This document shows positions 11,097 to 62,050 of a stretch of 64,000 bases of DNA, piece by piece. A program made the translations under genes and the position numbers. The notes beneath the pieces were generated by a model, which saw only the letters and a list, made by a program, of their open reading frames with translations, had not been told where the DNA came from and did not search any database. This DNA comes from a virus (taxonomy: Duplodnaviria; Caudoviricetes), in IMG/VR virus record IMGVR_UViG_3300012662_000009, positions 1 through 64,000 of that record; one strand, 5' to 3'. Numbering within the stretch: position 1 is the first letter of the stretch; the number at the start of each line of letters is the position of its first letter.

Positions 11097-11807
11097 TTAC
11101 TTTGCAAATTCAATATGGTCCTCATAAATTTCTATATCCCTATACATCCCAAGGGACAAATGTTCAATGCCATTTGTAAATAATGTATCAAATAATTTTT
11201 TATTTTTTTCATAAAAAACATCTAAACCATATTTGTTAATTTGCCTCAAAAATTTCCCAGATAATTTAGATTTTCGAATATCTATAATAATATGGTTTGT
11301 TTTCGAATATAATTCGGTTAGTATCTTTTCATTCACATCAGCACCCTTCCAATCACTATTTTGAAAAGTTACATTAATGCAGACCAATTGGTCTTTATAA
11401 GATAACTTAATATTCTCCAGATCTTTTATATTAGTTATTATTACATATGAATTTTTTATATTAAGATTTTTTATAATATCGCAATCTATTTCTTCAAGTT
11501 TTCCGGGAATATTATTTATATCATTTTGAGAAATAGCATTATATTTAATTCCTGTAGGGATCTCCTCCCAGGATTTTTTATCGAATTTTACCCATTCAGG
11601 GGGATTAGCACTGAAGAAATAAGGGGAATAGGTTTTACCAGTATGATAAATAACTCCGTTTTTAATCTTAACATGATCTTTCATCATATACCAACTAAAA
11701 ACATTCTTTTCAAGCCATTGTAATATGGGTTCTTCTGGTACATTATCAAGCAAATCATCCCCAGAGTCAAATAAAGATTCTATTATATATTGTTTTATAG
11801 GTTTCAT
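11097..11807 (-). CDS. CTS-leader paralogue family member 1 (MKPIKQYIIESLFDSGDDLLD)
   Basis: Family motifs PPEWVKFDKKSW and SQNDINNIPG; start reassigned to ATG 11807. Confidence 0.8.
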   Translation of the reverse strand: MKPIKQYIIESLFDSGDDLLDNVPEEPILQWLEKNVFSWYMMKDHVKIKNGVIYHTGKTYSPYFFSANPPEWVKFDKKSWEEIPTGIKYNAISQNDINNIPGKLEEIDCDIIKNLNIKNSYVIITNIKDLENIKLSYKDQLVCINVTFQNSDWKGADVNEKILTELYSKTNHIIIDIRKSKLSGKFLRQINKYGLDVFYEKNKKLFDTLFTNGIEHLSLGMYRDIEIYEDHIEFAK

Positions 11808-11889
11808 CTTATAATGTATATTCATAAATATATAATAAATATTTCATTAGAGTATTGATATAAGTTATTATATATTAAAAAAATTGTCC

Positions 11890-13740
11890 ATGGACAATCA
11901 TACTGAAGTACAATCTAAGGTCTTACAAGAATCTACTGATATGTTTATAGGAGAAGGATATGCTCTTAAAAATCCTTCAAGTATCCCAGGGTTTAAGGAA
12001 ACCTCCAATTTTCGACCTAAATATTCAAAAGATACTCAAAAGAAAAAGAAAAAAAATCTCGTAGCAAAATTCTTTTCTAACATGTCTCGTATGGGTATGA
12101 GATATGAAGAAGATGTGGTCGCGAATATGCGTGCACTTCCTGCTGATAAAAGTCTTATACCAAAGCCTGATCAGTTTGTTCAACAGGATCTTTTTGCACA
12201 ATTATCAAGTTCTTGGAAGGTTAAGAATAATCAAGATAAAAATTTCTTCGAAAAGGATTTTCAAGAAAAAAGAGAAGCACTCCGTAAATTAGCTCTACAA
12301 CCAGAGCTCGAAGATATTCTTGATACAATGGCAAATGAGTCTATTGTATATGACTCTGATTATACTTATTTCGCAGAACCCTTTATGGAACAGCAAGAAA
12401 TGGGAGATCTTAAGAAGGAAGTCAGAGATAATATTACCAGTACTATGTCTGAGTGGTATAGGAAGTTTTATAAAATGCTTAATTGGAAGTACCGAGCTTG
12501 GGATGATTTTAAGAGATTTTTGATAGAGGGGAATTTGTCATGGGAAATAGTCTATGATGACCTTAATAAACCTACTAAGATCATAGGGCTTATACCTGTC
12601 GATGCTGCTACATTGACAAGAAAATTTAAGAATAATAAATGGTATTGGGTACAATTCTCGGGTATACAAGGTCGTGAAAGGACTTTATTAGATTCTCAAA
12701 TAATCTATGTGGCATATCAAGAAACCGGCTGTGTCTCCAGAACTTCTTATCTTGAACGACTTATAAGGCCTTTTAATATATATAGAATTATTGAACAAGC
12801 ACAATTAATTTGGACTATAACTAATTCATCTTATAAAATGAAATTTACAATACCTATTAAGGGTATGAATAAGGTTATGGGTATGCAAACGCTGAGCTCT
12901 GCTATGAATAAGTATAAAGAAGATATAAAGTTTTTATCAGATTCTGGTGAGCTTCAGATAAATGGTCAAGTTAATATGCCTTTTAATAAAGAATATTGGT
13001 TCCCAGAATCTGAATCCGGATCTCCTCAGGTTGAAACATTAGGTGGAGAAGGCCCTGAGCTCAATGATAATGATCAATTAAAGTATTTTAAGAATCAATT
13101 ATATAAAATTTCTAAAATACCCCTTTCACGCTTTGACCAGGAATCTGGTGAGACCTGGTTTGGATCTGATCCTACATCTGCAACAAGAACTGAGATAGAA
13201 TTTGCACGATTTGTGACACGTCTACGCAATCAATTCTCTCAAATTATTATTAAACCCCTTCAATTACAATTAGCGCTTTCTATACCAGAATTACAAGATA
13301 ATAGAGAGATTCTTGAAGCAGTTTCTTTGAAATATCATTCCTATAATTTATTTGAAGAGATGATGGACTTGGAACTCACGCAAAAACGAGTGGAGTTCAT
13401 AAATACAATGAAAGAAAGTTTAGTAGATATGGATATGGAAGGAAACGAGGTCAAATTCTTCTCATCTAAATTCTTAGTACAAAAATATTTACAGTATTCT
13501 GCCGCAGATCTTGCATTAAATGAGAAATTGAAAAAAGAAGAAATTGATGAATTGAACTTAGCAGGCGATCCAGATAATGCTCCTTCAGAGTCTTTAATTG
13601 ATCAAATAGCAAATCTTTTAGAATCTAAGGAAGATAAAATAGAAACTATAAAGAAAGTTATAAAGAAACGTAAAAAGAAAGTCAAAGATCATTGCGATGA
13701 TATCTTAAATGATGAAAATCATCCTGACGATGAAGAATAA
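11890..13740 (+). CDS. Portal protein (T4 gp20-like)
   Basis: SYLER...YRIIE, KEYWFP, VETLGG, YFKNQLYKISKIPLSRF and TRTEIEFARFVTRLRNQF motifs. Confidence 0.9.
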   Translation: MDNHTEVQSKVLQESTDMFIGEGYALKNPSSIPGFKETSNFRPKYSKDTQKKKKKNLVAKFFSNMSRMGMRYEEDVVANMRALPADKSLIPKPDQFVQQDLFAQLSSSWKVKNNQDKNFFEKDFQEKREALRKLALQPELEDILDTMANESIVYDSDYTYFAEPFMEQQEMGDLKKEVRDNITSTMSEWYRKFYKMLNWKYRAWDDFKRFLIEGNLSWEIVYDDLNKPTKIIGLIPVDAATLTRKFKNNKWYWVQFSGIQGRERTLLDSQIIYVAYQETGCVSRTSYLERLIRPFNIYRIIEQAQLIWTITNSSYKMKFTIPIKGMNKVMGMQTLSSAMNKYKEDIKFLSDSGELQINGQVNMPFNKEYWFPESESGSPQVETLGGEGPELNDNDQLKYFKNQLYKISKIPLSRFDQESGETWFGSDPTSATRTEIEFARFVTRLRNQFSQIIIKPLQLQLALSIPELQDNREILEAVSLKYHSYNLFEEMMDLELTQKRVEFINTMKESLVDMDMEGNEVKFFSSKFLVQKYLQYSAADLALNEKLKKEEIDELNLAGDPDNAPSESLIDQIANLLESKEDKIETIKKVIKKRKKKVKDHCDDILNDENHPDDEE

Positions 13741-13837: not shown

Positions 13838-15367
13838 ATGGATATACAGGAAATATTATTAAATCCTAAAGGAAAGGCTAATTCAAGATATATAAAGATT
13901 CATTGGCCTGAGGATTATAAAGAAATTATTAAAAAACCTGGTAAAACATTTTCAGAGCAATTGTATAATTATATATACAATAATCCTGAGCATAAATGCC
14001 CTGTATGTGGTAAAGAAACTAATTTTAAGACTTTAACAGAAGGTTATTGTGAATGTTGTTCTATAAGATGTGCTGGAAAGAACCCTAAAAGAAATGAAAG
14101 ATCTGAGCAAACATGTCTTAAAAAATACGGAGTAAAGAATCCTTCTCAGTCTAAAGAAATTCAAAAAAAGAAAGAAGAAACTTGTCTTAAAAATTTTGGT
14201 GTGACTTCTTATTTCAAAACTCAGAAATGTCGTGATAAATCTATAGCATCTTGTTTAGATAAGTATGGAGTTAAATATACTTTTCTTAATAAAGAAGTTA
14301 GAGAAAAAGCTAAGAAAAATTATAAAAATAAATGTTATAATCCTCATCCTGACCATATAGGATATACTGAAGAAGGTTTATGGATAATGCAATGCCCTCA
14401 TCCTAATTGTAATAAATGTGAAGAAAAAACTTACATAATCAAACAACAAAATTATAATGATAGAAAAAGACTGCAAACAGAACCCTGTACTAAGTTATTA
14501 CCAATCGATTTAGGAATTAAAGGTACTTCCATTGAACTCTTTGTCTGGTCTATATTAGATGAATATGATATTCAATACGAAACTAATAACAGAACTTTAA
14601 TATCACCCAAAGAACTTGATATATACATCCCTTCTAAGAATATAGCCATTGAATGTAATGGGCTTTACTGGCATTCCCTCAAAGAACCTAAATATCACAT
14701 CAATAAATTCAAAGAATGTCAAGAAAGGAATGTTCAATTATTATCTATATGGGAAGACTGGGTATACTCTAAACCAGATATTCTAAGATCTATATTACTA
14801 TCCAAATTGGGCCTTATAAAGAACAAAATATATGCCAGAGAATGTATTATAAAAGAAGTTAATAGCAAAGAATGTAGTAAATTCTTAGAAAACAATCATA
14901 TACAAGGCAAGACCCCGACTATGATCCGCTATGGATTATATTATAATGGTCAATTAGTATCCCTTATGACATTTAATAAGAACTCTAAGGACAACAATTG
15001 GGTTCTTTCAAGATTCTGTAATAAAATCAATACAAACATCATAGGAGGGGCATCTAAACTCTTCAAACACTTTCTTAAAGAACATCCTGGTGAAACTATT
15101 ATATCATATTCTTCTAATGATATTTCTAATGGACATTTATATGAAACCTTAGGTTTCATTTCCAACAATATTATAAGAGCTGCTTACTGGTATATTAGTT
15201 ATGATGATTATACAAGATTTCACAGATCAACTTTTTCCAAGGGATGCTTAAAAAGAATAGGATATGATATTGCAGGAAAAACCGAAGCAGAAATAATGTC
15301 TGAAATGCCTTACTGGAGAGTATATGATTCTGGGACGACCCAATGGAAATTTGTAAACATACTGTAG
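13838..15367 (+). CDS. Hef-like/PD-(D/E)XK endonuclease with Zn fingers, KYGV repeats and Mom-like GNAT C-terminus (copy A)
   Basis: CPVCG; TCLKKYGV repeats; ELDIYIP...IECNGLYWHS; LSRFC...GGASKL...ISYS...GHLYETLGF. Confidence 0.75.
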   Translation: MDIQEILLNPKGKANSRYIKIHWPEDYKEIIKKPGKTFSEQLYNYIYNNPEHKCPVCGKETNFKTLTEGYCECCSIRCAGKNPKRNERSEQTCLKKYGVKNPSQSKEIQKKKEETCLKNFGVTSYFKTQKCRDKSIASCLDKYGVKYTFLNKEVREKAKKNYKNKCYNPHPDHIGYTEEGLWIMQCPHPNCNKCEEKTYIIKQQNYNDRKRLQTEPCTKLLPIDLGIKGTSIELFVWSILDEYDIQYETNNRTLISPKELDIYIPSKNIAIECNGLYWHSLKEPKYHINKFKECQERNVQLLSIWEDWVYSKPDILRSILLSKLGLIKNKIYARECIIKEVNSKECSKFLENNHIQGKTPTMIRYGLYYNGQLVSLMTFNKNSKDNNWVLSRFCNKINTNIIGGASKLFKHFLKEHPGETIISYSSNDISNGHLYETLGFISNNIIRAAYWYISYDDYTRFHRSTFSKGCLKRIGYDIAGKTEAEIMSEMPYWRVYDSGTTQWKFVNIL

Positions 15368-15396: not shown

Positions 15397-15441
15397 ACTT
15401 TTTAAGCACATTTAGAAGCGATTTAACAGACTTCGATAGGC
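15397..15441. repeat. Truncated copy of the dispersed element
   Basis: 15397-15433 identical over 37 bp to 46844-46880, then ATAGGC from the palindrome arm. Confidence 0.85.
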
Positions 15442-15575
15442 TTCTTATCCAACATATCGTCTTCATCATCAAACAATCCCTCATAGATTGTTTGCCTTTG
15501 ATCAAACAAACCTTCTTGAATTTTTTACCTTTGTTCAAATAAAGATTTGTTTATATATTCTTTTATAGGTTTCAT
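15423..15575 (-). pseudogene. Leader-only remnant of the CTS paralogue family
   Basis: Translates MKPIKEYINKSLFEQR*KIQEGLFDQRQTIYEGLFDDEDDMLDKKPIEVC*; not in the ORF track. Confidence 0.8.
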
Positions 15576-15658: not shown

Positions 15659-16711
15659 ATGCCTAATAAATTTATCAGCTTAGATAATATTAAAGTTGTA
15701 TGGAAAAATATACATGAAAGGTTTCAAAGACTCTATGCTATTACTACATTTGATTTAAATGGATTATTATCAGAATCAACTCCTGAAACGATAAGGGTTG
15801 ATGTGTTACAAAATGAAAAAACTTATTATATAACAGATGATTCATATGAGTCACTTATAGAATATCTCACTACGGGGCTTTTTGATAAAACATTAGTGTT
15901 TGGTCTCAGAAAATTTTCTGTATTAAGTAATTTCATATATCAACAATCTTATCCTGGGGATATAGATATTAGTATGGCTGATATAATACTTATAGATGAT
16001 GCTAAGAATATATATAATTTCAAAATTACATCCGAAAGCTGGGATACTCGATATAGAATTAAAGTAATATTAAATAAGATATTTTATCAAGCGAATGATA
16101 TAGATAATAAAGAAGAAACTCTTAAAGATGCATATTTAGGTGAATGGTCATTAGATAATTGTGCCATAGATAATGGAATCCCTTCATCTGGTGTAGGAAA
16201 GAAGTTAATTTCAGGTACTCCATATATTATAGGGTCTTATAAATATTATGGTCAGACATCAGTAGGATCTTTTACTATTGATAAACCCACAACATATTAC
16301 CTGGTAGATGCTTATAATCAACATATTGATATATACTTAATTAAACTTAAAAAATATTTCTCTGATGATGATTTAAGAAATATTGGTTTTAGAAAAATAA
16401 ACCTTATAAATGTCGACACTATATCTTATGATACTTTGGTTAAGAATAAAATAGATGTAACCATATTACCACAAAAGACAGATTCAAAGGGTAATCCTAT
16501 AGAAGGACAATATTTATTAGATGGAATTACTGTGAAGAATACTGATAATATATATCAATTCACTATAAATCCTGAATATATATTCGAAACAAGATCTACT
16601 AAAAAAAATCATAAAGCACAATATGTATTAAGTATTTTTAGAAGAAGTGCTGATGGTGATGGAGTACGAAATCAATATGTAAAATTAGCCGAAAGACCTT
16701 ATATAAAATGA
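15659..16711 (+). CDS. Hypothetical, possibly fibre/adhesin-associated protein
   Basis: N-terminus KFISLDNIKVVWKNI resembles that of 33844 (EFLDANGLKTLCNEI). Confidence 0.45.
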   Translation: MPNKFISLDNIKVVWKNIHERFQRLYAITTFDLNGLLSESTPETIRVDVLQNEKTYYITDDSYESLIEYLTTGLFDKTLVFGLRKFSVLSNFIYQQSYPGDIDISMADIILIDDAKNIYNFKITSESWDTRYRIKVILNKIFYQANDIDNKEETLKDAYLGEWSLDNCAIDNGIPSSGVGKKLISGTPYIIGSYKYYGQTSVGSFTIDKPTTYYLVDAYNQHIDIYLIKLKKYFSDDDLRNIGFRKINLINVDTISYDTLVKNKIDVTILPQKTDSKGNPIEGQYLLDGITVKNTDNIYQFTINPEYIFETRSTKKNHKAQYVLSIFRRSADGDGVRNQYVKLAERPYIK

Positions 16712-17406
16712 AAAATATAAAAGAATATATAAACGAGTCGCTTTTCGATTCTGAAGATGATTTACTGGATAAAACTCCTGATATTGCTATATACAAATGG
16801 TTGGGAGAAAATACCGATTTAGAATATGCCCTAAAACACAATAGAGTGAAAGTTAATAATGGTAAGGTTTATACTGACACATCTACCAATTGGAGTCCTG
16901 TTACTATCAAATCTAATCCACCAAAATGGATAAAATTTGATGAAAAATCTTGGGGAGAACAGGCAATTAATATTAAATATAGCATTAAATCTCAAAAAGA
17001 TATAAATAATATTCCTGGATGGATTGAGCGTATTGAGGCTCCGGTCGTTAAAAATGTAGATATTAATACTAAGTTTTTAGAATTTATATATACGAAAGAA
17101 ATTGAAAATATAATTCTACACTATGATAAAGAAGATAATATACATGTAGAATTTGCTCAGTCAGAACCGGATGAAAATACTTTAATGAATATATCATCTA
17201 TAACTAATAGTATATATATAGATATTCGAAAAACTAAATTATGCAATAAACTTAAAAGACAAATTAAAAAATACGGTACAACAGATTTTTATACTAAAAA
17301 TTGGACTTTATTTAAAACTCTTTATGAAAATAAAATAAAATACCTACGAGTTGGGCCATGGGATTTTATTAGAATATATGATACTTATATTACATATGGT
17401 GCGTAA
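16708..17406 (+). CDS. CTS-leader paralogue family member 2 (MKNIKEYINESLFDSEDDLLDKTP)
   Basis: PPKWIKFDEKSW and SQKDINNIPG motifs. Confidence 0.85.
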   Translation: MKNIKEYINESLFDSEDDLLDKTPDIAIYKWLGENTDLEYALKHNRVKVNNGKVYTDTSTNWSPVTIKSNPPKWIKFDEKSWGEQAINIKYSIKSQKDINNIPGWIERIEAPVVKNVDINTKFLEFIYTKEIENIILHYDKEDNIHVEFAQSEPDENTLMNISSITNSIYIDIRKTKLCNKLKRQIKKYGTTDFYTKNWTLFKTLYENKIKYLRVGPWDFIRIYDTYITYGA

Positions 17407-17422
17407 TTGGATAATATAATAA

Positions 17423-19054
17423 TTATCCATTATAAGTAATATTAACACAAGACTTCTTCTTAAAATCCCCCATATTTTCTAAAGACAGATCTATAAACCC
17501 ATTAAAAAATTGTTCATCAATATCCTGATGAGATACTATAAATAACGTATTATTAGATTTTACAGAATCTTTTAAGACTTTACACATATCATTTCTAAGG
17601 GATTCATCTAAATTCGAAAAAAGTTCATCTAAGAACATTATATTAATCGAAGAAGACCCTATAATCGCTCCTAAAACACCTAATATAATTATCATATCCA
17701 CGGTTTTAAGTTGCCCTGTAGATAATGAAGAGAGTGGTATAGGGTCTTTATATCCACACATATTGATAATACACTTAAAATTCTCATCGAAAGTTATTAT
17801 ATAAGGCTGTTGAAGAAGTGAAGTGTATTTTAAGATATTATTATTTATAACAGGAATAAAATTACTTAATATTTTTGATCTAATATCACAAGACAAAATA
17901 TTATAAAGCCTATCCCAAGCAGACCCTTCTTCTATATACTTATTATATTCTTCATCTAATTTTATAAGTTCTTTCTGTAACTTCTCAACCTCCTCAAAAT
18001 TTATCAAGGATCGCTTAGCCTGTTCACGTAATCTTATAAGTAAATTTTCTTTGATTTTAACGCGATCTTTGCCCTCGGATATATATTTGTTCATCTCATC
18101 CTTTTCACGCGAAATATGAGCTTCTATGAGCGTTATAGTGCTATGTATTGTATTGTATGCCTCCAGCAATTCTTCTCTTTCTTTTTCCTTGTCTTTTAAT
18201 CGGGACTGATCAATAGGAGCTCCGCATGTGGGACATTTGCCTTTTTTGATAAAATCTATTTCTTTTTTCTTATTCTTGCCAAGCGTTATAAGAGAGGCCA
18301 TGTTTTGTTTTTTATCCTGAATCTCCTCCGTTAGTTTTTTAATATTATTATTATAGATTTCTATATTCTCATTTAATTCTTTCTTTATATCTTCTATTTC
18401 TTTTTCTATTTCTCGTTCATCTCCTTCTATAATAGACTTAGAAGTTAATTCATTGATTTTATCTATCTGACTTTTTATATTTTGTGCGTTTCCTTTGATG
18501 GTATTTATAATATTTATATTATCATTTTTAAGGAACCGACAAATTTCCGTGTATTGAGTTAATATATAAAACCCAAAGACTTGATCAAGAAACTTTTTGG
18601 TATCCTGAGAGTTAAGAGTAGCAACCGATTTGAAATTATTAAAAGATATTATACATAACATCTCGAGTGCTGTTCTGGTTGTGTCATAATATTCTTTTTC
18701 GAGTTGTATTTGTGCATCCCTTTTATTGGTAAAAACCAATTCTTCTCCATCTACTTCAACATACAATGGAGATTGCCCGTAGGAATTTAATTCTCTTTTA
18801 ATATATAAATTATGTCCTTTAGAAGTACACCAGAGTTCTATTAAAGAATGTTTTTCTCCCCATGATATTAAATCAGAGTTATTTTTACCATTGATAGAAC
18901 CGAATAAACCAAATATAACAGCCTCTCCTATAGTTGTTTTACCAGACCCTACAGGACCAGATATCTTCCAGAATCCTTGAATGTTATTAAAATCTATTTC
19001 AAGGGAATCATATATTGATTTGAAGTTATTTATCTTAATTTTTTGAATATACAT
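17423..19054 (-). CDS. SbcC/Rad50/gp46-like recombination ATPase
   Basis: Walker A GPVGSGKT, coiled coil, zinc hook CPTCG, signature LSTGQ, Walker B FLDE, H-loop SH. Confidence 0.93.
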   Translation of the reverse strand: MYIQKIKINNFKSIYDSLEIDFNNIQGFWKISGPVGSGKTTIGEAVIFGLFGSINGKNNSDLISWGEKHSLIELWCTSKGHNLYIKRELNSYGQSPLYVEVDGEELVFTNKRDAQIQLEKEYYDTTRTALEMLCIISFNNFKSVATLNSQDTKKFLDQVFGFYILTQYTEICRFLKNDNINIINTIKGNAQNIKSQIDKINELTSKSIIEGDEREIEKEIEDIKKELNENIEIYNNNIKKLTEEIQDKKQNMASLITLGKNKKKEIDFIKKGKCPTCGAPIDQSRLKDKEKEREELLEAYNTIHSTITLIEAHISREKDEMNKYISEGKDRVKIKENLLIRLREQAKRSLINFEEVEKLQKELIKLDEEYNKYIEEGSAWDRLYNILSCDIRSKILSNFIPVINNNILKYTSLLQQPYIITFDENFKCIINMCGYKDPIPLSSLSTGQLKTVDMIIILGVLGAIIGSSSINIMFLDELFSNLDESLRNDMCKVLKDSVKSNNTLFIVSHQDIDEQFFNGFIDLSLENMGDFKKKSCVNITYNG

Positions 19055-22788: not shown

Positions 22789-24222
22789 TTAGCGGTGAGA
22801 CTTCCAAGTACGGAATTGATTTCTTATATGACGCTCACGCTCATCTTCGATAGTCTGGAGGCCTTCATAAACATTTTGAATAGGCTTGACATCTTCGAAA
22901 TGGATATTGTTCCAGAAACGTTCTATAGCACCTTCATTTACAAAGTTATAAAGCTTAGCTCGGCGCATGATAGATTCCTTAACAGAATCATCAGCCATAT
23001 CCCATTGGACACGTTTCTCTGCAGGCATCGCGGCTATAAATTTGGGTTCATTGAGATTTTCTGTGATGATAGCCTTGCGAGAATAATTGGGTTTGGTTAC
23101 TTCGATCGATTCCAGAACCTTAAGAGTTTCGTCTATAGAATTAAGATTGTTCTTCTTATCATCTTCTATGGACTCATCAATTTGATCTTGAATAGCTTCG
23201 CTGTAATGTTCTGTTAACCAATTCTCTATTTCAGGTGAGAACTCTTCAACAATCCATTTCTGGATACCATCAGCAAATTCTGTCTTGCACCATTTTTCAA
23301 CTTCTGTAGAATAATCTTCTACAATCCATTTCTGAACCTCAGGAGAATATTCTTCTATAATCCAATCTTGAATCTTCGGAGCAATGGATTCTACAAACAT
23401 TTCTTTGACATCTTCTTTTATGTTATTACTAAACTCTTCCTGAAGATGTTCTGTACACCAACTTTGCACTACAGGAGAATATTCTTCTATAATCCATTTC
23501 TGAATACCATCAGCGAATTTCTGCGCGTCAAAATTATTATTAGATTCATTTAATTGTTCCTGCAGATCTTCATTGGCTTGTTCTAATTCCTTGATACGAT
23601 CTTCCAGAGCGGACATCTTCTCAAGTATTTCATCTAATTCCATATTATTGTCTATTTCATTTTTTTCAGTATCTTTCTCGGTGATGTAATAAATATTACT
23701 CTCATTGATCGATTCAGCTATTTGATTTTCATTGAGATGTAATTTAGCCTGTGAAAACCCCGGAGTACCCACCAGGTCATATGTAGCGATTTTTTCAAGG
23801 CATACATTACCGGATTTATCAACATTACCTGTAGCCCGAGAAGAGATGAATAAAGGAAGGCCTCCTTCAACTATAGCCTGTGCTATTTTACCTTTAGGGG
23901 TATTAAGTAATGTTATAGAACCTGTTACAACACCATTTTCATCTATATTTATATCAGTAATCTTATGAGATACATTTTCAAGTGTTATATTCATCATCTG
24001 AGGATGCTCGAGCTCTCCAGGAATACCTCCTTCTTCCTTGATACGGTTCTTCATTTCAGTCACCATCTTGGAATAATTAGAAGTCTCGTAAACCCTCTGA
24101 TTATTATTTCTAACACCACAGACACCAAAGACTCCTGTTAAGGTCATGAGATCACCATCTCTCTTAACATTAAGATCTTTGACACCGTTAAGTGTCTCAT
24201 ATATTAAGCAGTTTTTAGACAT
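22789..24222 (-). CDS. Prohead protease (T4 gp21-like) fused to an acidic repeat/scaffold-like region
   Basis: NNNQRVY, GELEHP, ISSRATG, TYDLVGTPGF; C-terminal coiled coil and IQKWIxEEYSPE repeats. Confidence 0.9.
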   Translation of the reverse strand: MSKNCLIYETLNGVKDLNVKRDGDLMTLTGVFGVCGVRNNNQRVYETSNYSKMVTEMKNRIKEEGGIPGELEHPQMMNITLENVSHKITDINIDENGVVTGSITLLNTPKGKIAQAIVEGGLPLFISSRATGNVDKSGNVCLEKIATYDLVGTPGFSQAKLHLNENQIAESINESNIYYITEKDTEKNEIDNNMELDEILEKMSALEDRIKELEQANEDLQEQLNESNNNFDAQKFADGIQKWIIEEYSPVVQSWCTEHLQEEFSNNIKEDVKEMFVESIAPKIQDWIIEEYSPEVQKWIVEDYSTEVEKWCKTEFADGIQKWIVEEFSPEIENWLTEHYSEAIQDQIDESIEDDKKNNLNSIDETLKVLESIEVTKPNYSRKAIITENLNEPKFIAAMPAEKRVQWDMADDSVKESIMRRAKLYNFVNEGAIERFWNNIHFEDVKPIQNVYEGLQTIEDERERHIRNQFRTWKSHR

Positions 24223-24279: not shown

Positions 24280-24993
24280 TCATAACTTACGAGCAGTTGC
24301 CTTGCCTTTGGAAATCTCTATAACAGCTCCGTCTTCAATTTCAAGATATTTTATATTATTTTGATATAATCCATCAAAAATCTTTTTATTCTTTTTATAT
24401 ATATCTTCTCCCGCTTTTATTTGTCTTTTTAATTTATTAGCCAAGTTTGTATAATTAATCCTTATTGACGTATCAGGAGCCTTTGATTTAATGCTCAACA
24501 AATGAACATCCTTAACATTCTTTTGATTCGAAAATGACACTACACATTTATAATAATCATTCTTAATAAGATCACTTGGATCCATAGTAATACCTTTAAT
24601 GCTATTAATTTTTAATGATACAAAATTTACATCCAATATTATATCAGCGCAATTATCGCAGCTTATATAATTAATTTCTCCAGGAGCCCAATCAATATCT
24701 TTTTGAGAGGCGATGTCATAGCATATAGCAATCATTCGGTCACTCCAGGATTTTTCATCAAATTTTAGAAAACTCGGTGGGCATTTGTAGAAATATACAT
24801 TTTCAGGTGGGAAATTTGCTATGAAATATACAGTGTTATTTTGGATTTCTATAATTTCTTCTATAGGTTTATTTCTACCAAATGATACATTTTCTCGATT
24901 TCCAAACCACTGGTAGATATCTTTAACTGGACTTTTGTCTGTTAAATTATCATCAAAAACACTTTCTATTATAAAATTCTTTAAAGTTTTCAT
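24280..24993 (-). CDS. CTS-leader paralogue family member 3 (MKTLKNFIIESVFDD)
   Basis: PPSFLKFDEKSW, SQKDIDWAPG and KLKRQIK motifs. Confidence 0.8.
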   Translation of the reverse strand: MKTLKNFIIESVFDDNLTDKSPVKDIYQWFGNRENVSFGRNKPIEEIIEIQNNTVYFIANFPPENVYFYKCPPSFLKFDEKSWSDRMIAICYDIASQKDIDWAPGEINYISCDNCADIILDVNFVSLKINSIKGITMDPSDLIKNDYYKCVVSFSNQKNVKDVHLLSIKSKAPDTSIRINYTNLANKLKRQIKAGEDIYKKNKKIFDGLYQNNIKYLEIEDGAVIEISKGKATARKL

Positions 24994-26298: not shown

Positions 26299-27891
26299 TT
26301 AATTATAATAATCCTTATATACCCATTTTGTCAGACCTGAATCATACAAAGGCAGAAATCCCAATTCATATGTAACTTCTCGTTCAGTCCAGGATGAATC
26401 ATTAGACTCCTTTAATCCCATTCTTACAATATTATTCTTCATAAAAACTGATCTATGAACTCTGTCATAGGATATTTTATGAACATACCAATAAATTTTT
26501 ATAGGTTTTTTATCTGATTGAAACCCCAAAGTTTCATATAAATGTCCATTGGAGATATCATTAGAAGAATATGATATAACAGTTTCACCAGGATGTTCTT
26601 TAAGAAAGTGTTTGAAAAGTTTAGATGCCCCTCCTATGATGTTTGTATTGATCTTATTACAGAATCTTGATAATTCCCATGATTTCTTTCCTTTAGCTCC
26701 CTGACCTCCTTTCTGCTTTCCAAAGGTCATCAAAGAAACCAATTCATTATTATAATATAATCCATAACGAATAGAAGAACCTGTTTTGCCCTGTATATGG
26801 TTTTCTTCTAAGAACTTAACTGAATCATTATAAGAAACATCTTTAATGACACATTTACGAGCATAAATCTTATCTTTTATAAGACCCAATTTAGATAATA
26901 ATATAGACTTTGCAATATTAGGTTTGTTTCTTATCCAGTCTCCCCATAAAGTTATTAATTGAACTCCTTTTTCTTGGCACTCCTGAAATTTCTTGATATG
27001 ATAATTAGAAGGTTTCTTTTTAAGAGAATGCCAGAAAATACCATTACATTCAATAGCTAAATTCTGCGAAGGGATGTATATATCAAGTTCTTTGGGTGAT
27101 ATTAAAGTTCTGTTATTGGTTTCGTATTGAATATTATATTCATCTAATATAGACCTTACAAAGAGCTCGATAGAAGTACCTGATGAAAATACTTGCCTGT
27201 GAGGTATAAGATTTGTACAAGGTTCAATGTTACTGTATCTTCTACCCCAATATTTATGCGATTCGATTTTATATATTTTTTCAGAACATTTGTTGCATTC
27301 TGGATGAGGGCATTTACATGTATAGATTCTTAATCCTTCTATTTCTTCTACATTAAGAATATTTTCATTATTTTTAAGCAGTTTTTCATTGTTTGTCTTT
27401 TTTAATTTTAATTTAACCTCGTCTGTATGTATCGGATTCTCATACCCATATTTTTCTAAACATGATTGCTTAAATTTAGCGAAAGATTTTGGTGAGCCAT
27501 TTCCCATGCCGCCATATTTTGTTATGGTATTATCTATTATTTTTTTCTTAATAGATTCATTTTGAGAAGCATGTTCAACACCAAAACGCTCTAAACAAGT
27601 ATTTTTAAGTTTGTTTTTGGTGTCTTCCGAAGTCATACTACATTTATTTCCGCAGAATTTTTGATATCCAAATGAGATATATAAAAATTTTGTCTCTTTA
27701 CCACATATGGGGCATTTGGGGTGTTCTTTGATGTTGTTATAATAACAATATAAAAGTTCCGGAAACCTTTCGTAATGATAATCTTTATAAGTCTTCATTA
27801 AGTATTTATAAAATTCTGGATAATGAATTTCTATATATCGAGCTTTTAATTTCGAGCTGCAATTTAATTCTTTAAGTTCAGGTATTAACAT
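26299..27891 (-). CDS. Hef-like endonuclease / Mom-like GNAT fusion (copy B); start probably MLIPELK at 27891
   Basis: Same architecture as 13838 and 28696. Confidence 0.75.
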   Translation of the reverse strand: MLIPELKELNCSSKLKARYIEIHYPEFYKYLMKTYKDYHYERFPELLYCYYNNIKEHPKCPICGKETKFLYISFGYQKFCGNKCSMTSEDTKNKLKNTCLERFGVEHASQNESIKKKIIDNTITKYGGMGNGSPKSFAKFKQSCLEKYGYENPIHTDEVKLKLKKTNNEKLLKNNENILNVEEIEGLRIYTCKCPHPECNKCSEKIYKIESHKYWGRRYSNIEPCTNLIPHRQVFSSGTSIELFVRSILDEYNIQYETNNRTLISPKELDIYIPSQNLAIECNGIFWHSLKKKPSNYHIKKFQECQEKGVQLITLWGDWIRNKPNIAKSILLSKLGLIKDKIYARKCVIKDVSYNDSVKFLEENHIQGKTGSSIRYGLYYNNELVSLMTFGKQKGGQGAKGKKSWELSRFCNKINTNIIGGASKLFKHFLKEHPGETVISYSSNDISNGHLYETLGFQSDKKPIKIYWYVHKISYDRVHRSVFMKNNIVRMGLKESNDSSWTEREVTYELGFLPLYDSGLTKWVYKDYYN

Positions 27892-27934
27892 ATATATAAT
27901 TATATTAAAATTATCCAGTTTCTTTATATACAAC

Positions 27935-27962
27935 AAAAGAGGATTCATAGAACCCTCTTTTT
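27935..27962. terminator. Terminator after the tail tube gene
   Basis: AAAAGAGG...CCTCTTTT hairpin. Confidence 0.6.
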
Positions 27963-35305: not shown

Positions 35306-35815
35306 ATGAAGTCCATAAAAGAATTTATTAATGAAAACAATAGTACTGTTATGAGGCAATTTGTAGATACTGTAAATAATGCCCGTAGGAGTAATGAAGC
35401 ACATGAATTAATAAATGTTGCTATTCAAGATATTTTAGAAATCCTTGAGAAAATGCAGAAGAAAGCCAAAGATCTGAAGGTTATTAAAAATATTTTTAAT
35501 GTAAGGATAAATGATAAAAAAGAACTTCAGAAATATCAATATTTCATGTCAACCATTTTGACATACTTACATGATAATTTGGAAAGTACTAAAGTAAATA
35601 TAAAAGATCCATGGAATAGTTTTTTAATGTACTTAAATTTCACGGTTATAGAACATATGGAAAGTTCTGAGATGAATGAAATGATAGCTTCTGCTATAAG
35701 TGATGATATTTTGGGAGAAGATGCTGATTGGGATGATTACAAAGGTATTTTTATGCAAGCTCTTATGAATCTTAACCGTCTTTGTAAAATGGTGACAGGT
35801 AAGTATTGGAAGTAA
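35306..35815 (+). CDS. Hypothetical protein with CTS-like leader (MKSIKEFINE); paralogue of 46277
   Basis: Shared C-terminus DDILG...DY..F..A.M.LN.LCK..TGK. Confidence 0.75.
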   Translation: MKSIKEFINENNSTVMRQFVDTVNNARRSNEAHELINVAIQDILEILEKMQKKAKDLKVIKNIFNVRINDKKELQKYQYFMSTILTYLHDNLESTKVNIKDPWNSFLMYLNFTVIEHMESSEMNEMIASAISDDILGEDADWDDYKGIFMQALMNLNRLCKMVTGKYWK

Positions 35816-35901: not shown

Positions 35902-36762
35902 TTAGCGGCCACGATATCCTTTCGGTTTTAATTCAGGATTTTCATCAGTTTTTGTGCCATCTAACATAGCATATTTTAAGGACATGACTCCATTATCTCC
36001 AATATCAGATACATCCCAATTTGAAAGATCACAATCAAATTTTTTACAATCACAGAACATCCTCGATACATCTTGTGCTGAAGATATGTCCCATTTAGAA
36101 ACATCTGAATTGAACTCATAACAATTCTCAAACATACCACCGAAATTCTTGACATTGCTTACATCCCATTTAGAAACATCTGAATTGAAATATTCGCAAT
36201 GAGCAAACATATGATTCATATTTGTAACTTTAGATACTTTCCATTTAGAAACATCTGAATTGAAATATTCGCAATGAGCAAACATATGATTCATATCCGT
36301 AGCTTTAGATACATCCCACTTAGAAAGATCTGAATTGAAATATTTACAGCCAATAAACATACCACTAAAATTCTTGACATTGCTTACATCCCAATTTGAA
36401 AGATCACATGCGAAATTTTCAACTCCAGCGAAGGCCTCAGACATATTTGTAACTTTAGATACATCCCACTGAGACACATCATAATTATGCATCAAATACA
36501 TCTTCGGTAGTGTTTTGAATAATTCACCAATATCTGTTATTTTCGAAGTGTCTATTGTATTCAGATTAATAGTTTCATACTTTTGTTTCCGTTTAATAAG
36601 AGAAATCGTCTTTTTATACCATTTGTTGTTTTTTGATAATTGATCGCTGGTAGTAGCTCTTACGCAATCAACTAATTCCCTGAAATTTTTTGGCTGATAT
36701 GTTTTAAGCTCGGGTTCGGGTGTATAAAGTTTTTCTGTTATATAATTATCCAAATGTTTCAT
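35902..36762 (-). CDS. DUF285/BspA-like 25-aa repeat protein with CTS-like leader (MKHLDNYITE)
   Basis: About 7 WDVSxVxNMxxMF repeats; 75 bp DNA period. Confidence 0.85.
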   Translation of the reverse strand: MKHLDNYITEKLYTPEPELKTYQPKNFRELVDCVRATTSDQLSKNNKWYKKTISLIKRKQKYETINLNTIDTSKITDIGELFKTLPKMYLMHNYDVSQWDVSKVTNMSEAFAGVENFACDLSNWDVSNVKNFSGMFIGCKYFNSDLSKWDVSKATDMNHMFAHCEYFNSDVSKWKVSKVTNMNHMFAHCEYFNSDVSKWDVSNVKNFGGMFENCYEFNSDVSKWDISSAQDVSRMFCDCKKFDCDLSNWDVSDIGDNGVMSLKYAMLDGTKTDENPELKPKGYRGR

Positions 36763-46276: not shown

Positions 46277-46840
46277 ATGAAAAATCTGAAAAATTCAATC
46301 TTAGAATCCTTAAATAACAAAACGAGGAGAATCAATGAGAGTGTTAATAAAAACAGTATTTTAGGAAAGCTCGAGTCTGATATTAATAAAGCTGTTTATG
46401 ATGAATCCATAGATCCGGATGATGCGATGGATCAGATCAATACAACTATTTATAAATTACAAAAAGTCTTTGAGAAGATGCGTAGAAAGACTGAGAATGA
46501 TGCTGTTATTGAGAATATTTATAAACAAGACATCGCAAACGAAGATGATGTAAAATATTATAAAAGTATCACCGAAATGTTATTAGATGTCATGATAGAT
46601 AATATTGAGTTGATTGATATTGATCTTGAAGAGCCCTTTGACAATGCATTACAATTTTATTTATATGAAGATAAAGAATTTTTAGAATCAGCTGAATTAG
46701 AAAATTTATGTGATCTTGCCAGCGGTGATGAGATTCTTGGAAGCGGAGCTGAAAAAGGAGATTACCAAAAATATTTTATAAATGCATGGATGCACTTAAA
46801 TGACCTTTGTAAGATAGCTACCGGTAAAGCTCTTCGATAA
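46277..46840 (+). CDS. Hypothetical protein with CTS-like leader (MKNLKNSILE...RINE); paralogue of 35306
   Basis: Shared C-terminal motif with 35306. Confidence 0.75.
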   Translation: MKNLKNSILESLNNKTRRINESVNKNSILGKLESDINKAVYDESIDPDDAMDQINTTIYKLQKVFEKMRRKTENDAVIENIYKQDIANEDDVKYYKSITEMLLDVMIDNIELIDIDLEEPFDNALQFYLYEDKEFLESAELENLCDLASGDEILGSGAEKGDYQKYFINAWMHLNDLCKIATGKALR

Positions 46841-46843
46841 TAC

Positions 46844-46952
46844 ACTTTTTAAGCACATTTAGAAGCGATTTAACAGACTTTAATAGGCACCGATATAGAT
46901 TTATATATCTGAGCCTATTTTGTTGTGTTAGAGAGTAAATATAAGAGTCAAT
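46844..46952. repeat. Dispersed element, copy 2 (palindrome 46882-46919)
   Basis: AATAGGCACCGATATA-GATTTA-TATATCTGAGCCTATT with both flanks. Confidence 0.9.
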
Positions 46953-47083: not shown

Positions 47084-47800
47084 TTATAAAATATTATCTA
47101 ACACTAAAACCTTTTTCTCATTTAATTGAAGTGCGTAAACATTATTATTTCGCATCTTAGTCAGGACATCTCTATATTTATTTACGAATTTCTTGGTTCT
47201 TAACTTCCCATGTTCTTTCGATAATTTTTGACCTAAATCGTTGTAATATAAAGTAATCTGATTTTGATCACTATATTTAGAAAACTTAATTTCAGTTAAT
47301 TGATCAATGTCTTTTACTCCTATCAATACTTCTGTATTAACATTATAAGTAATATTTTTTATATTTTCAGAGTTAATATTGGTCCAGTTATTTAATATTA
47401 AATTTTGAGTCTTATTATTTTGAAACTCTGCTATTCTATTAAATTTGTCTAATGGAATATTTTTTATATCCTTTTGAGATATAACATCATAATAAATGCA
47501 CGTCATGGTCCCTGACGCGGTCAGGGTGTTCATGCATGATTTCTCGTCAAATTTTATAAAACTTGGAGGTTGTTTATAATATTCTATATGATCACAACCA
47601 TGAGATATTTGAAATGATACTATACCTTTATCATCTATAGATAATACTTCTTTAGTTGGAATAGGATAGTAATATAATCTTTTAATAAATTTAACATTCT
47701 CATCAAACCATTCTATGATTGCATCTGTAGGAGTTTTATCAAGTAAATCATCTTCAGAATCGAAAAGCGACTCGTTTATATATTCTTTTATATTTTTCAT
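47084..47800 (-). CDS. CTS-leader paralogue family member 4
   Basis: First 72 nt match 16708 with one mismatch; PPSFIKFDEKS and SQKDIKNIP motifs. Confidence 0.85.
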   Translation of the reverse strand: MKNIKEYINESLFDSEDDLLDKTPTDAIIEWFDENVKFIKRLYYYPIPTKEVLSIDDKGIVSFQISHGCDHIEYYKQPPSFIKFDEKSCMNTLTASGTMTCIYYDVISQKDIKNIPLDKFNRIAEFQNNKTQNLILNNWTNINSENIKNITYNVNTEVLIGVKDIDQLTEIKFSKYSDQNQITLYYNDLGQKLSKEHGKLRTKKFVNKYRDVLTKMRNNNVYALQLNEKKVLVLDNIL

Positions 47801-52218: not shown

Positions 52219-52247
52219 AAAAAGGACCTTTAATCGGTCCTTTTTTT
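52219..52247. terminator. Bidirectional terminator
   Basis: AAAAAGGACC-TTTAATC-GGTCCTTTTT. Confidence 0.75.
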
Positions 52248-52406
52248 ATTTCTCTTAACTTTTTCTTTCTTAGCTTTAGCTGTAACTAATGGTTCGGATC
52301 CCGAGAGAGAATCTGTAGGGATCATTGGATTACCCATACCCATTGTATTACCTGATGTGGTAGCAATTCCACCATCACATTCTAAGTATTGTTTAAAAGT
52401 TTTCAT
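52230..52406 (-). CDS. Unannotated 58-aa protein with CTS-like leader (MKTFKQYLE)
   Basis: MKTFKQYLECDGGIATTSGNTMGMGNPMIPTDSLSGSEPLVTAKAKKEKVKRNKKRTD; ATGA overlap with the 52403 stop. Confidence 0.75.
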   Translation of the reverse strand: MKTFKQYLECDGGIATTSGNTMGMGNPMIPTDSLSGSEPLVTAKAKKEKVKRNKKRTD

Positions 52407-53302
52407 ATAAAAGAGCCATATTCAATTATTTTTCGACCATCTACAGTGTAATTCCATATCATTAATTCATTTGTTTTAGAATCTATAGACATTCTTAATG
52501 CCTTGGATCTCATATAAATAATATGTCGTATTCCATTATCATACATTTTTTTAAGATACGATTGAGCATCACCGAATAATTGCAAAGGTATATATTTCTC
52601 TTTATATTCCTTTTTATAGTCTTTGCATATATTATAAAATAATCTTTTAATATTTGGGCACGTCTCGCTTGCATTTATTATAGCAGAGCAATGATAATAT
52701 CCATCATCAGCACCAGATATTTTAATCTCCACAAGATCTTTCAATTGTATATTTGAATTCGGGATATTTATTATCAATTGAATCATATCCTTTGGGGTAT
52801 CTATTGTAAAATTTTTAATCGAATTGCAATTATACATAAATAATTTTGTACCTACTTTACTGGGGTTTGTCTTAATCTTTATATTATTAATATCCCCATA
52901 TACATAGGATATTGCACCATCAGGAACATCCTTTTGACTTTTAATATTATATTTTAGGCCAAAAATAATATCTCCGTTATTTATATCGTTTTTATTAAAT
53001 TTAATAAATGATGGTAGTGGTTTATATAGATGAATTAATAAATGTTCATTTTGAGCAACGGATAATTCACCCCCGGAATTTTGTGTAATTATGTCGTGAC
53101 CTAATGGAACGGTGGTCAAATAATTACTATGAACAATGTTTGCATTATCTTCATCAAAAATCCAATCCAATGCTGGTTCCTTCGGTGAAGAATTTAATAA
53201 ATCATCTTCAGAACCCAATAATCTTTCAGTGACCTTTAGGCTATCAAAGATACCTTTGCCAGTCATGAAACCGTCATTTATATACTCTTTTATAGACTTC
53301 AT
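52403..53302 (-). CDS. CTS-leader paralogue family member 5 (extended leader)
   Basis: MKSIKEYIND...LLGSEDDLLN; LPSFIKFNK; SQKDV. Confidence 0.8.
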   Translation of the reverse strand: MKSIKEYINDGFMTGKGIFDSLKVTERLLGSEDDLLNSSPKEPALDWIFDEDNANIVHSNYLTTVPLGHDIITQNSGGELSVAQNEHLLIHLYKPLPSFIKFNKNDINNGDIIFGLKYNIKSQKDVPDGAISYVYGDINNIKIKTNPSKVGTKLFMYNCNSIKNFTIDTPKDMIQLIINIPNSNIQLKDLVEIKISGADDGYYHCSAIINASETCPNIKRLFYNICKDYKKEYKEKYIPLQLFGDAQSYLKKMYDNGIRHIIYMRSKALRMSIDSKTNELMIWNYTVDGRKIIEYGSFI

Positions 53303-56725: not shown

Positions 56726-57496
56726 ATGAAGTCTATAAAAGAATATATAATAGAAGGATTATTTGATAATGAAGATGATTTACTGGATAAAAAGAGTTCT
56801 CAAGAAATATTAGAATGGTTTGATAATTATAATAATATAATCATTAACCAGCGCTTTCTTAAGATTCTTGATAATGGCACTGTATCATTAACACAAAAAG
56901 TTGATGTGTGTTGGTATAAACGTCTTCCAGAATATATAAAATTAGATAAAGAATCCTGGGAAAAATATGCTACTAATACAATAGCTTTTGAACTTAAAAC
57001 CCAAAGAGATATTGAAGGCATATACGGTAATATTCAGGAAATATGTAATGCTGAATATCTGCAAAACATTAATATTCATACAGATAGTGTATTATCATTT
57101 AGAGCTTCTATTAAAGATTATAAAAATATAACATTAATAGGTGATAACTATAAAATATTAAGATTAGGAATATATAATACTATAAAGGATCCTGGTCAAC
57201 TTTTACAGTTTAATTATAAAAATATTAAATTTGTTCATCTCATCTGTTACGGATTAGATGATCTGTTTCTCAATTATAAAAAATATGCAGATCTTTTAAA
57301 CGGATTGATTAATAAAGGGGTTGTTATGATTACATTTTATAATAAAAACTCCCACAAATCCATGATTGCGGCATATATGGTTAAGGGAACGCGAAGATGG
57401 AATATTAATAAAGTAACAAAGGATCATTCTAAAGGTGAATGGTTATTATTTACAGATGATAGGGATTTTATATCAATCTTAGAAAATTATTATTAA
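56726..57496 (+). CDS. CTS-leader paralogue family member 6
   Basis: MKSIKEYIIEGLFDNEDDLLDK; LPEYIKLDKESW; TQRDI. Confidence 0.85.
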   Translation: MKSIKEYIIEGLFDNEDDLLDKKSSQEILEWFDNYNNIIINQRFLKILDNGTVSLTQKVDVCWYKRLPEYIKLDKESWEKYATNTIAFELKTQRDIEGIYGNIQEICNAEYLQNINIHTDSVLSFRASIKDYKNITLIGDNYKILRLGIYNTIKDPGQLLQFNYKNIKFVHLICYGLDDLFLNYKKYADLLNGLINKGVVMITFYNKNSHKSMIAAYMVKGTRRWNINKVTKDHSKGEWLLFTDDRDFISILENYY

Positions 57497-58118: not shown

Positions 58119-58160
58119 AGATATCATACAACGCACATAAATATATCAAATTTCGCTCGA

Positions 58161-58230
58161 AATAGGCTCAGATATAGATTTATATATCTAAGCCTATTTT
58201 TCTTGTTAGAGCACAAGTATGAAAGTTAGA
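58161..58230. repeat. Dispersed element, copy 3 (palindrome 58161-58198)
   Basis: AATAGGCTCAGATATA-GATTTA-TATATCTAAGCCTATT plus a degenerate right flank. Confidence 0.85.
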
Positions 58231-61276: not shown

Positions 61277-62050
61277 TTATTTTATCTTTTCGCGCCATCT
61301 ACCTTTTCTGGGATCTATGGTTACAGTTTGATTTATATCAGTGAATTTAAGAATACTTCTTAATCTTCCCGCAGAACAAATTATTGTTGGGCATTTTAAT
61401 TTAGTAAGTAAGTGGTTAGAAAGGATTTCTCCATGTTTTGTAGAAAAACTTAATTTATCATAAGAATTCAGATCTTCTATATGTAATTCTACTCGAGTAT
61501 CTGTTGTCATGGAGATATTCATAATATCATCAGGTGTTGCACTATCAAGATATAATTCAAGCCAACTCGAAGGTTTCTTTGTCTTAAGTTTAATCTTATT
61601 AAAAGACCTTACATCAGACATATCAAAACTATCTTTAACCAGAAATGTTAAATTGGATACTTTATCAGTACATATAGCAGAGATAAAACCGGGTAATCTT
61701 TTCAATTGGTCTTGAGTGATATTATTATAACATAATATAAATCTTAAGGTATCACAAGATTTCTTATCAAAATTTATATAAGAAGGAAGTGGAGCATCGA
61801 GCTCAAAAGTTCGTCCTGAGGGATAATTATCATATATAATACCATCCTTAATAGAAAAATCCTTTTCAATGTTCCTTGTAGTATGACTATTATCAATACT
61901 TTTTAAATAATCATATATAGCTTGATCGGGGGTTTTGTTAAGTAAATCGTCTTCAGAATCAAATAATCCTTCTCTAACTGCTGTTAAGTTATCAAAGGTT
62001 TCTTTGCCCGCTGTTAAGCTATCATTTATATATTCTTTTATAGGTTTCAT
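61277..62050 (-). CDS. CTS-leader paralogue family member 7 (extended leader)
   Basis: MKPIKEYINDSLTAGKETFDNLTAVREGLFDSEDDLLNKTP; LPSYINFDKKS; start reassigned to 62050. Confidence 0.8.
   Translation of the reverse strand: MKPIKEYINDSLTAGKETFDNLTAVREGLFDSEDDLLNKTPDQAIYDYLKSIDNSHTTRNIEKDFSIKDGIIYDNYPSGRTFELDAPLPSYINFDKKSCDTLRFILCYNNITQDQLKRLPGFISAICTDKVSNLTFLVKDSFDMSDVRSFNKIKLKTKKPSSWLELYLDSATPDDIMNISMTTDTRVELHIEDLNSYDKLSFSTKHGEILSNHLLTKLKCPTIICSAGRLRSILKFTDINQTVTIDPRKGRWREKIK

Follow-up and report, generated by a model that had tools for sequence, protein, structure and literature searches.

We analysed a window of 64,000 nucleotides (nt) taken from the start of a single virus contig of 158,646 bp (IMG/VR record IMGVR_UViG_3300012662_000009; 31% GC; rated 97% complete), in which two divergent genes of one paralogous family begin with almost the same 72-nt coding leader and lie in inverted orientation with 31 kb between them. 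Judged by its sequence, the source of the contig is an uncultivated, distant T4-like myovirus. The first leader, at 16708-16779 on the plus strand, matches the reverse complement of 47729-47800 at 71 of 72 nt, the sole mismatch (CTG versus CTT) is synonymous (Leu), and the same 24 residues are encoded by both copies. A repeat search of the window recovered the pair as a 115-nt inverted repeat with 83% identity, which leaves the flanks outside the 72 nt only ~56% identical, similarity collapsing after the codon for the closing proline. An earlier reading made from the letters alone (the sequence-only reading) had pointed out the near-identity, the single mismatch and the abrupt end after this proline, and all three are confirmed. 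Behind the leader, the bodies (~210 residues) of the genes starting at 16708 and 47800 (genes are named here by their start positions) are 26% identical in amino-acid and 47% in nucleotide sequence when 188 codons are aligned, and the two genes are true but old and distant paralogues.

The leader had been described as present in two copies. While this pair is real, more copies exist, since the full two-part leader is carried by nine genes, starting at 11807 (-), 16708 (+), 24993 (-), 47800 (-), 53302 (-), 56726 (+) and 62050 (-) in the window and at genome positions 98347 (+) and 127556 (-), and one further leader stands as an orphan. At the nucleotide level the leaders of the family are 64-88% identical. 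A third gene approaches the pair in similarity: the first 30 nt of the gene at genome positions 98347-99096 are the same as those of the 16708 and 47800 leaders, and its overall identity to them is 86% (~62/72).

Probable gene conversion restricted to the leader

The synonymous sites provide the first line of evidence on the origin of the near-identity. Given identical residues and the codon usage of the genome, 13.3 of the 24 codons are expected to match by chance, and the probability of 23 or more matches is 2.8e-6; a hand estimate that uses the codon identity of other leader pairs (~0.65) gives ~7e-4 per pair. Codons common to both leaders include the rare TCG (7%), AAC (15%) and GAG (22%). 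At identical residues of the bodies, codon identity is 0.56 and equals the expectation (0.555), and for other leader pairs it is mostly 0.55 to 0.8 (0.68 for the leaders overall), and pairs with 20-22 identical residues have 12-14 codons in common. On the basis that the bodies and most other leader pairs stay near the random expectation, synonymous sites in the leader are generally free, with no general constraint on the nucleotides. Purifying selection on the peptide, acting together with AT-rich codon bias, could be invoked to explain the identity without any exchange, all the more so in a 31% GC genome with strong codon preferences whose leaders all have 64-88% of their nucleotides in common. 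Yet amino-acid constraint and codon bias do not account for at least 23 of 24 identical codons where ~13.3 are expected, nor for the lower codon agreement of pairs that encode nearly the same peptide or for the rare codons in both copies, and we regard this explanation as hardly credible.

The second line of evidence is phylogenetic. In the tree of the bodies 16708 groups with 11807 (43% identity) and 98347 with 62050 (37%), and 47800 falls into another well-supported clade. By contrast, the first 30 nt of the leaders are identical (30/30) among 16708, 47800 and 98347, other pairs agreeing at 16-27 positions, so that grouping by leader splits each pair of body sisters between leader versions. 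The excess of identity and this incongruence between leaders and bodies are both explained by gene conversion limited to the leader, which supports the recent conversion that the sequence-only reading had suggested. In mechanistic terms, the event would have been a recent, non-reciprocal exchange brought about by the general recombination of the phage and limited to the leader, probably the only stretch in which the diverged paralogues have kept enough similarity for pairing.

We considered whether the nucleotide sequence itself is functional, for example as a translation-initiation region, a translational operator or a small-RNA target, and is held identical by selection. The identical stretch does open with the ATG, translation of each gene is coupled to that of the open reading frame (ORF) upstream, and leader codon identity (0.68) is somewhat above that of the bodies (0.56). 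Against this, synonymous sites are free to vary in the seven other paralogues that encode the same peptide, residue changes occur in the leader among strain variants of the 47800 gene, and the end of the tract coincides with a protein-domain boundary, which together make such an explanation very unlikely. In our reading, function does not require the two copies to be nearly identical as DNA.

A chimeric or collapsed metagenome assembly might likewise have copied one leader onto the other gene, given that the contig is metagenome-derived and that a 59-nt exact repeat can tangle assembly graphs built with short k. However, both proteins recur in independent assemblies in the version present in the window. 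That of the 16708 gene is P0001 (21 contigs), and that of the 47800 gene seems to be P0053, a cluster member found on 7 independently assembled contigs (matched by the listed residues, not over the full length). Recurrence on independently assembled contigs argues against an artefact, and the one synonymous mismatch argues against simple copying, so that we give this explanation next to no credence.

Among strain-level protein variants the leader of 16708 is invariant, whereas that of 47800 has 5 variable sites in the first 34 residues, compared with 9 in the other 204; P0054-P0056 and P0061 are from strains in which the 47800 leader differs. This distribution hints that the 47800 gene may have been the recipient of the conversion. 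We infer both the direction and the mechanism of the exchange.

A probable T4-type capsid-targeting sequence at the start of the leader

The leaders start with M-K-x-I/L-K-E-Y/F-I-x-E, that is, with I or L at position 4, Y or F at position 7, I at position 8 and E at position 10. In the T4 record NC_000866, the internal proteins (IP) IPII and IPIII begin with MKTYQEFIAE and IPI begins with MKTFKEF. The first 10 residues of T4 IPIII suffice for targeting to the head; within this capsid-targeting sequence (CTS) residues 4 and 7 matter for targeting and residues 8 and 10 for processing, and gp21 cuts after L/I-x-E, Asp at position 10 blocking processing, not targeting (PMC9026906). The tag pattern agrees with this mutationally defined CTS in having a hydrophobic or aromatic residue at positions 4 and 7, I/L at position 8 and Glu at position 10, and the same genome encodes an S77 (gp21-type) prohead protease along with T4-type head genes.

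We compared the leaders of 41 family proteins and observed that all 27 short leaders have Glu10, whereas 13 of the 14 longer leaders lack it and have D, K or N in its place. In every longer leader (14/14, read by eye) the inserted piece ends in x-x-Glu directly before S/G-L-F-D, and Glu therefore precedes this motif in 41 of 41 proteins; in 52403-53302 the site is V-T-E before R-L-L-G, which the search pattern did not cover. As loss of Glu10 is paired with an inserted x-x-Glu, a Glu-type cleavage site before S/G-L-F-D is always kept. Conversely, six distant members (P0093, P0099, P0101, P0108, P0111 and P0113) are without the 10-residue tag and begin with M-S-(L/I/V)-F-D, which is the predicted cut point, so that after normal removal of Met their N-terminus would be the same as that of the cleaved forms. 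In an AlphaFold model of the 16708 protein (40-sequence alignment; predicted local distance difference test [pLDDT] 90), residues 1-17 are disordered (pLDDT <50), and the fold begins at residue 23-24, exactly where nucleotide identity ends.

The same tag is found on proteins outside the family. At least six ORFs with unrelated bodies, starting at 35306 (+), 36762 (-) and 46277 (+) and at genome positions 86646 (+), 111678 (-) and 114934 (-), bear the first 10 residues only, with a lower nucleotide identity of 16-26/30. A strict pattern for the N-terminal tag gave 15 matches among 1,138 Met-started open frames, all at or near the first ATG, and the corresponding DNA pattern was matched 10 times versus 0.29 expected. 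Overall, tag genes occupy at least 16 dispersed sites, on both strands, between core genes. Through its composition, the 58-aa ORF at 52230-52406 (Table 1) shows the tag as what appears to be a module ending at Glu.

The sequence-only reading had taken the leader for a targeting signal, a view supported by its likeness to the T4 CTS, the tag on unrelated bodies and the protease gene. In the mechanism that we propose, part 1 of the leader (residues 1-10, M-K-x-I-K-E-Y-I-x-E) would act as a T4-type CTS that attaches the protein to the scaffolding core while the prohead assembles. The gp21-type S77 protease encoded at 22789-24222, presumed to be the enzyme that removes the leader, would then cut after Glu10, leaving part 2 (S/G-L-F-D-x-E-D-D-L-L-D-K) as the N-terminus of a mature, head-packaged and probably injected protein whose body would be a ~210-residue domain resembling leucine-rich repeat (LRR) proteins.

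Alternatively, the leader could tag proteins for something other than head packaging, such as another part of the virion, localisation at the membrane or pole, or controlled degradation, its likeness to the T4 CTS being convergent. The shortness of the tag, the analogy through which the leader is given a packaging role and the lack of a known role for part 2 would allow for this. However, the position-by-position match to a mutationally defined CTS, the S77 protease encoded in the genome and the Glu specificity in this protease family, the covariation of Glu in 41 leaders and the natural forms that start at the predicted cut all speak against it. Moreover, the leader is not hydrophobic and hence is not a secretion signal. 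We consider a tag with a purpose other than packaging unlikely.

Taken together, we think it likely that the leader is a flexible two-part N-terminal propeptide with a T4-type CTS and that the near-identity of the two copies reflects recent gene conversion limited to the leader. Several points weigh against this interpretation. Packaging, cleavage after Glu10 and injection are steps that we infer by analogy for this phage. The tag is only 10 residues long and M-K starts are common in AT-rich genomes, the role of part 2 is not established, and upstream of tag genes the T4 late-promoter octamer shows only weak enrichment (4/16 versus 12/150). As the upstream genes differ and there is no homology 5' of the leaders, the converted tract spans the entire homologous patch, which makes donor and recipient indistinguishable. 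Finally, in the relatives described below, mosaicism is established at the protein level only, and in some cases a change in leader length could stem from deletion between short E-S-L repeats and not from exchange.

Mosaic leaders among relatives

A profile search yielded 40 relatives, all from metagenomes and some on 160-169-kb contigs, and an exhaustive hidden Markov model search of 1.84 billion representatives found 72 family members, which indicates that the family is narrow. When leader class (21, 25 or 31+ residues) was mapped onto a tree built from the bodies only, 11 changes were counted compared with 12.7 for shuffled labels, and the well-supported branches of the body tree force at least 8 changes for the short leader class. 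With leader type changing almost as often as shuffled labels, it is uncoupled from body phylogeny, and mosaics exist, in line with the leader/body chimeras for which the sequence-only reading had proposed to search. Both outcomes that this reading had named as refuting it, an identity explained by codon bias and amino-acid constraint alone and relatives without mosaicism, are thus contradicted by the data. Near-identical bodies with different leader segments are seen in P0019/P0025, P0027/P0035, P0003/P0008 and 62050/P0009. In P0019 versus P0025 residues 11-30 are replaced, not merely extended by an insertion, and in P0027 versus P0035 the first 8 residues are replaced; such replaced segments cannot be explained by E-S-L deletions.

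Derivatives with a deleted body also occur among the relatives (P0115, P0122 and P0085). In the window, an orphan leader of this kind (15438-15575) is fused to a half copy (15397-15441) of a palindromic element that is also found at 46844-46930; of its relatives, P0115 is an intact 39-aa ORF and P0074 is a full-length gene with the same leader type.

The sequence-only reading had further proposed that the leader serves as a recombination handle to which new payloads can be attached. The data bear this out in so far as leader segments are exchanged within one paralogous family and the 10-residue tag stands on unrelated bodies with 16-26/30 identical nt; for capture of payloads through the leader they give no demonstration.

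Phages whose portal proteins are 53-72% identical to that of the phage studied here are without the family body, yet contain many small ORFs that begin with a tag of this kind, in many cases with S-L-F-D behind it, and among the tag genes of these kin an identical prefix extends to at most 29 nt. In a related phage from IMG/VR (L019), two inverted ORFs with 16% body identity have an identical 29-nt start (plus-strand offset 14249, minus-strand offset 3112, 0-based per strand), apparently a weaker repeat of the leader identity in another genome. No match was found for the first 32 nt of the leader in an exact-match search of IMG/VR or for the relative P0026 in a tblastn search of GenBank phages, and locus searches of viral, metagenome and genome collections with the family or with single members returned pattern matches and no confirmed relative.

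Possible consequences of the inverted orientation

In agreement with the sequence-only reading, a crossover within the inverted leaders is possible and would flip 16780-47728 (31 kb), swap the bodies between the two upstream contexts and leave both genes intact. To our search models, serine (PF00239) and tyrosine (PF00589) recombinases are absent from this 97%-complete genome, the controls being positive, so any such flip would be an occasional by-product of general recombination and not a programmed switch. The RecA Pfam model also found no match in the genome, and a UvsX-type recombinase was not identified by this model.

The leaders could nevertheless be imagined as crossover sites of a programmed invertible segment, as in a shufflon, that switches which body is expressed from which promoter, an idea suggested by their inverted orientation and by the exchange of bodies between two intact upstream contexts without breakage of either gene. 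The lack of serine and tyrosine recombinases, the presence of the repeat as ordinary coding sequence also in direct-oriented copies (56726 and 98347) and the 31 kb of core genes between the two copies render this extremely unlikely.

A more far-reaching proposal, which we offer as a doubtful extension of the reading that we favour, is that the two-part leader forms a genome-wide cassette system, being at once a packaging signal and a patch of homology with which a T4-like phage of the gut swaps, deletes and re-tags a rapidly evolving repertoire of LRR-like injected effectors. Under such a system, crossovers between inverted copies would generate genome isomers in natural populations (for example by the 31-kb flip), and the conserved acidic motif, laid bare by cleavage, would be a second, hitherto undescribed signal, such as one for exit through the portal or for engagement of a host target.

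The body behind the leader

We searched for relatives of the family body by profile and by structure. It has no match in Pfam or PHROGs, no Foldseek match at an E value of 0.001 or better against PDB and BFVD, and no usable match in a search of the ESM Atlas. VIA-align with the model of the family body listed mostly LRR proteins among its matches, with Z scores of 4.2-6.5 that are below the level that stands out, and the body is accordingly called LRR-like here at low confidence, as a model-based assignment. A bona fide LRR protein with a DUF285 domain (35902-36762) bears the same 10-residue tag.

Comparison with known systems

The closest parallel is the CTS of T4 IPI, IPII and IPIII (PMC9026906, PMC12373910, PMC3012670). 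In both cases a 10-residue tag of the form M-K-x-hydrophobic-(K/Q)-E-aromatic-I-x-E sits at the extreme N-terminus of otherwise unrelated proteins and ends in the L/I-x-E site of a gp21-type protease. T4 itself has a counterpart of the leader identity, in that the first 32 nt of ipII and ipIII are identical and are followed by complete divergence. There are also differences: a second conserved acidic motif lies behind the tag in the present family, and the cargo includes a nine-member paralogous family of ~230-300 aa, whereas T4 cargo consists of small basic proteins. The tag genes here are single and dispersed genome-wide on both strands and do not cluster, whereas T-even IP genes lie in two small hyperplastic loci (PMC2839356); such clustering is a feature of the T-even arrangement and not of the tag mechanism.

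T4 Alt, a head-packaged ADP-ribosyltransferase, is cut at I-T-E-6, and its mature form starts with L-F-D-E-D (PMC5694885). This start echoes the S/G-L-F-D-x-E-D-D predicted here. By contrast, there is no homology of the bodies, and the Alt propeptide, 6 residues in length, does not resemble the IP-type tag. With only a few residues in common, the likeness offers a lead and does not amount to a test.

In the giant phages, gp53 and gp54 of SPN3US have identical first 15 residues (PMC5694885), and these two proteins, like the inner-body proteins of phiKZ, belong to paralogous families of head-internal or ejection proteins whose N-terminal propeptides are removed by a protease. Their propeptides, however, are ~100 residues or longer, the cleavage motif is A/S-x-E, and the sequences are unrelated to the family described here.

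The promoter and stem-loop (PeSL) cassettes of T4-type phages offer a parallel at the level of DNA, in that short conserved sequences on either side of variable genes allow modules to be shuffled by recombination (PMC2839356, PMC4122927). PeSLs are intergenic units of a promoter and a stem-loop, whereas the shared sequence here is coding and is the tag itself. The T4 literature describes the IP loci as highly plastic and flanked by PeSL-like elements (PMC2839356), and the CTS has already been proposed as a way to load diverse proteins into T4 heads (PMC9026906). Given this literature, the ipII/ipIII identity and SPN3US gp53/gp54, the principle is already known. What is new here is the acidic second leader motif that would be left on the mature protein, the nine-member LRR-like cargo family, the dispersal of tag genes over at least 16 sites and the swapping of leader sub-segments.

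Injected proteins that are packaged in the head are the first phage molecules to meet host defences, and all three T4 internal proteins inhibit distinct GmrSD restriction enzymes (PMC12373910). The findings extend the T4 targeting-tag principle to an uncultivated phage clade, provide a sequence rule (tag, then Glu, then acidic motif) for listing candidate injected proteins in it, and point to the tag region as the site of continuing sequence exchange between paralogues. Should the tag function as it does in T4, head cargo would be encoded by ~16 or more genes, far more than in T4, among them those of a large LRR-like family with host proteins as possible binding partners. A conserved motif would stay behind at the mature N-terminus, a feature that recurs in miniature in T4 Alt.

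Genome context and further features

Coordinates of the leaders, family genes, other tag genes and head genes are collected in Table 1. Besides the portal protein, the genome encodes a gp23-type capsid protein (PF07068), a tail sheath, a family-B DNA polymerase and an SbcC/gp46-like nuclease (17423-19054). By portal, the closest named phages are 33-41% identical and comprise uncultured huge phages, Sphingomonas phage PAU and Tenacibaculum phage PTm1.

Table 1. Leaders, tag genes and head genes located in the window (positions on the 64,000-nt stretch)
Feature	Position	Strand	Remarks
Leader copy A	16708..16779	+	Codons 1-10, capsid-targeting-like peptide ending I-N-E; codons 11-22, acidic SLFD...DDLLDK; codons 23-24, T-P linker
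Leader copy B	47729..47800	-	71/72 identical to copy A, inverted orientation
Family gene, 232 aa	16708..17406	+	Start overlaps stop of ORF 15659-16711 (ATGA); body closest to 11097-11807
Family gene, 238 aa	47084..47800	-	Start abuts stop of 81-aa ORF 47800-48045; body in a major clade other than that of 16708
Family paralogue, 236 aa from ATG at 11807	11097..11807	-	Body sister of 16708 (43% identity); leader differs in nucleotide sequence (72%)
Most divergent family paralogue	24280..24993	-	Directly upstream of prohead protease gene
Family paralogue, long 37-residue leader	52403..53302	-	Position 10 is Asp; new V-T-E site before acidic motif
Family paralogue, short leader	56726..57496	+	
Family paralogue, long 38-residue leader	61277..62050	-	Near-identical orthologue P0009 has short leader
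Orphan leader, long type, one in-frame stop, no body	15438..15575	-	Breaks right after D-K-K-P codons
Unrelated 169-aa ORF, 10-residue tag only	35306..35815	+	
286-aa DUF285 (BspA-type leucine-rich repeat) protein, 10-residue tag only	35902..36762	-	PF03382 2.8e-62
187-aa ORF with tag	46277..46840	+	Paralogue at genome 86646-87152 (+)
58-aa ORF	52230..52406	-	9-residue tag ending in Glu, then copy of capsid-protein residues ~47-68 (N-terminal segment), lysine-rich tail
T4-type portal protein	11884..13740	+	PF07230 4.2e-72; marks the element as a T4-like phage
Prohead maturation protease, Peptidase_S77/S80, 477 aa, with C-terminal repeat region	22789..24222	-	PF03420 2e-08, PF20034 1.9e-05, phrog_207 9.5e-39

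At 477 aa the prohead protease is more than twice as long as T4 gp21 and has, behind the S77 domain, ~4 helical repeats (23206-23519) rich in W-I-(I/V)-E-E-(Y/F)-S-P; this repeat region may be a fused scaffold or a docking region for the tag. Alignment of the N-terminus of the capsid protein with T4 gp23 around the gp23 cleavage site was not significant, and V-Y-E before G as the capsid cleavage site of this phage is only a guess.

Some of the tag genes have features of their own. The paralogues at 46277-46840 (+) and genome 86646-87152 (+) both begin with M-K-N-L-K-N-S-I-L-E, and within the first 40 residues of the former lie several further hydrophobic-x-Glu sites, as in the T4 core and scaffold proteins that are chopped up by gp21. 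In the tag gene at genome 93340-94116 (+) the first 18 nt are tandemly duplicated, which places an in-frame M-K-D-I-K-D repeat before the real tag and looks like the outcome of slippage within the leader.

Three large paralogous ORFs at 13838-15367 (+), 26299-27948 (-) and 28696-30387 (+) contain tandem ~23-residue repeats of the K-Y-G-V type, visible as a 69-nt repeat period at 29008-29283 within the last of them. They have repeats of 160-460 nt in common, with 89-92% identity and in direct as well as inverted orientation. These ORFs look like mobile genes of the homing-endonuclease type and would constitute recombination substrates much longer than the leader. Lastly, an intergenic element of ~60 nt is dispersed at 33-92, 46871-46930 and 58150-58209; it forms a terminator-like 16-6-16 palindrome, and its role may be comparable to that of the PeSL cassettes of T4-type phages.

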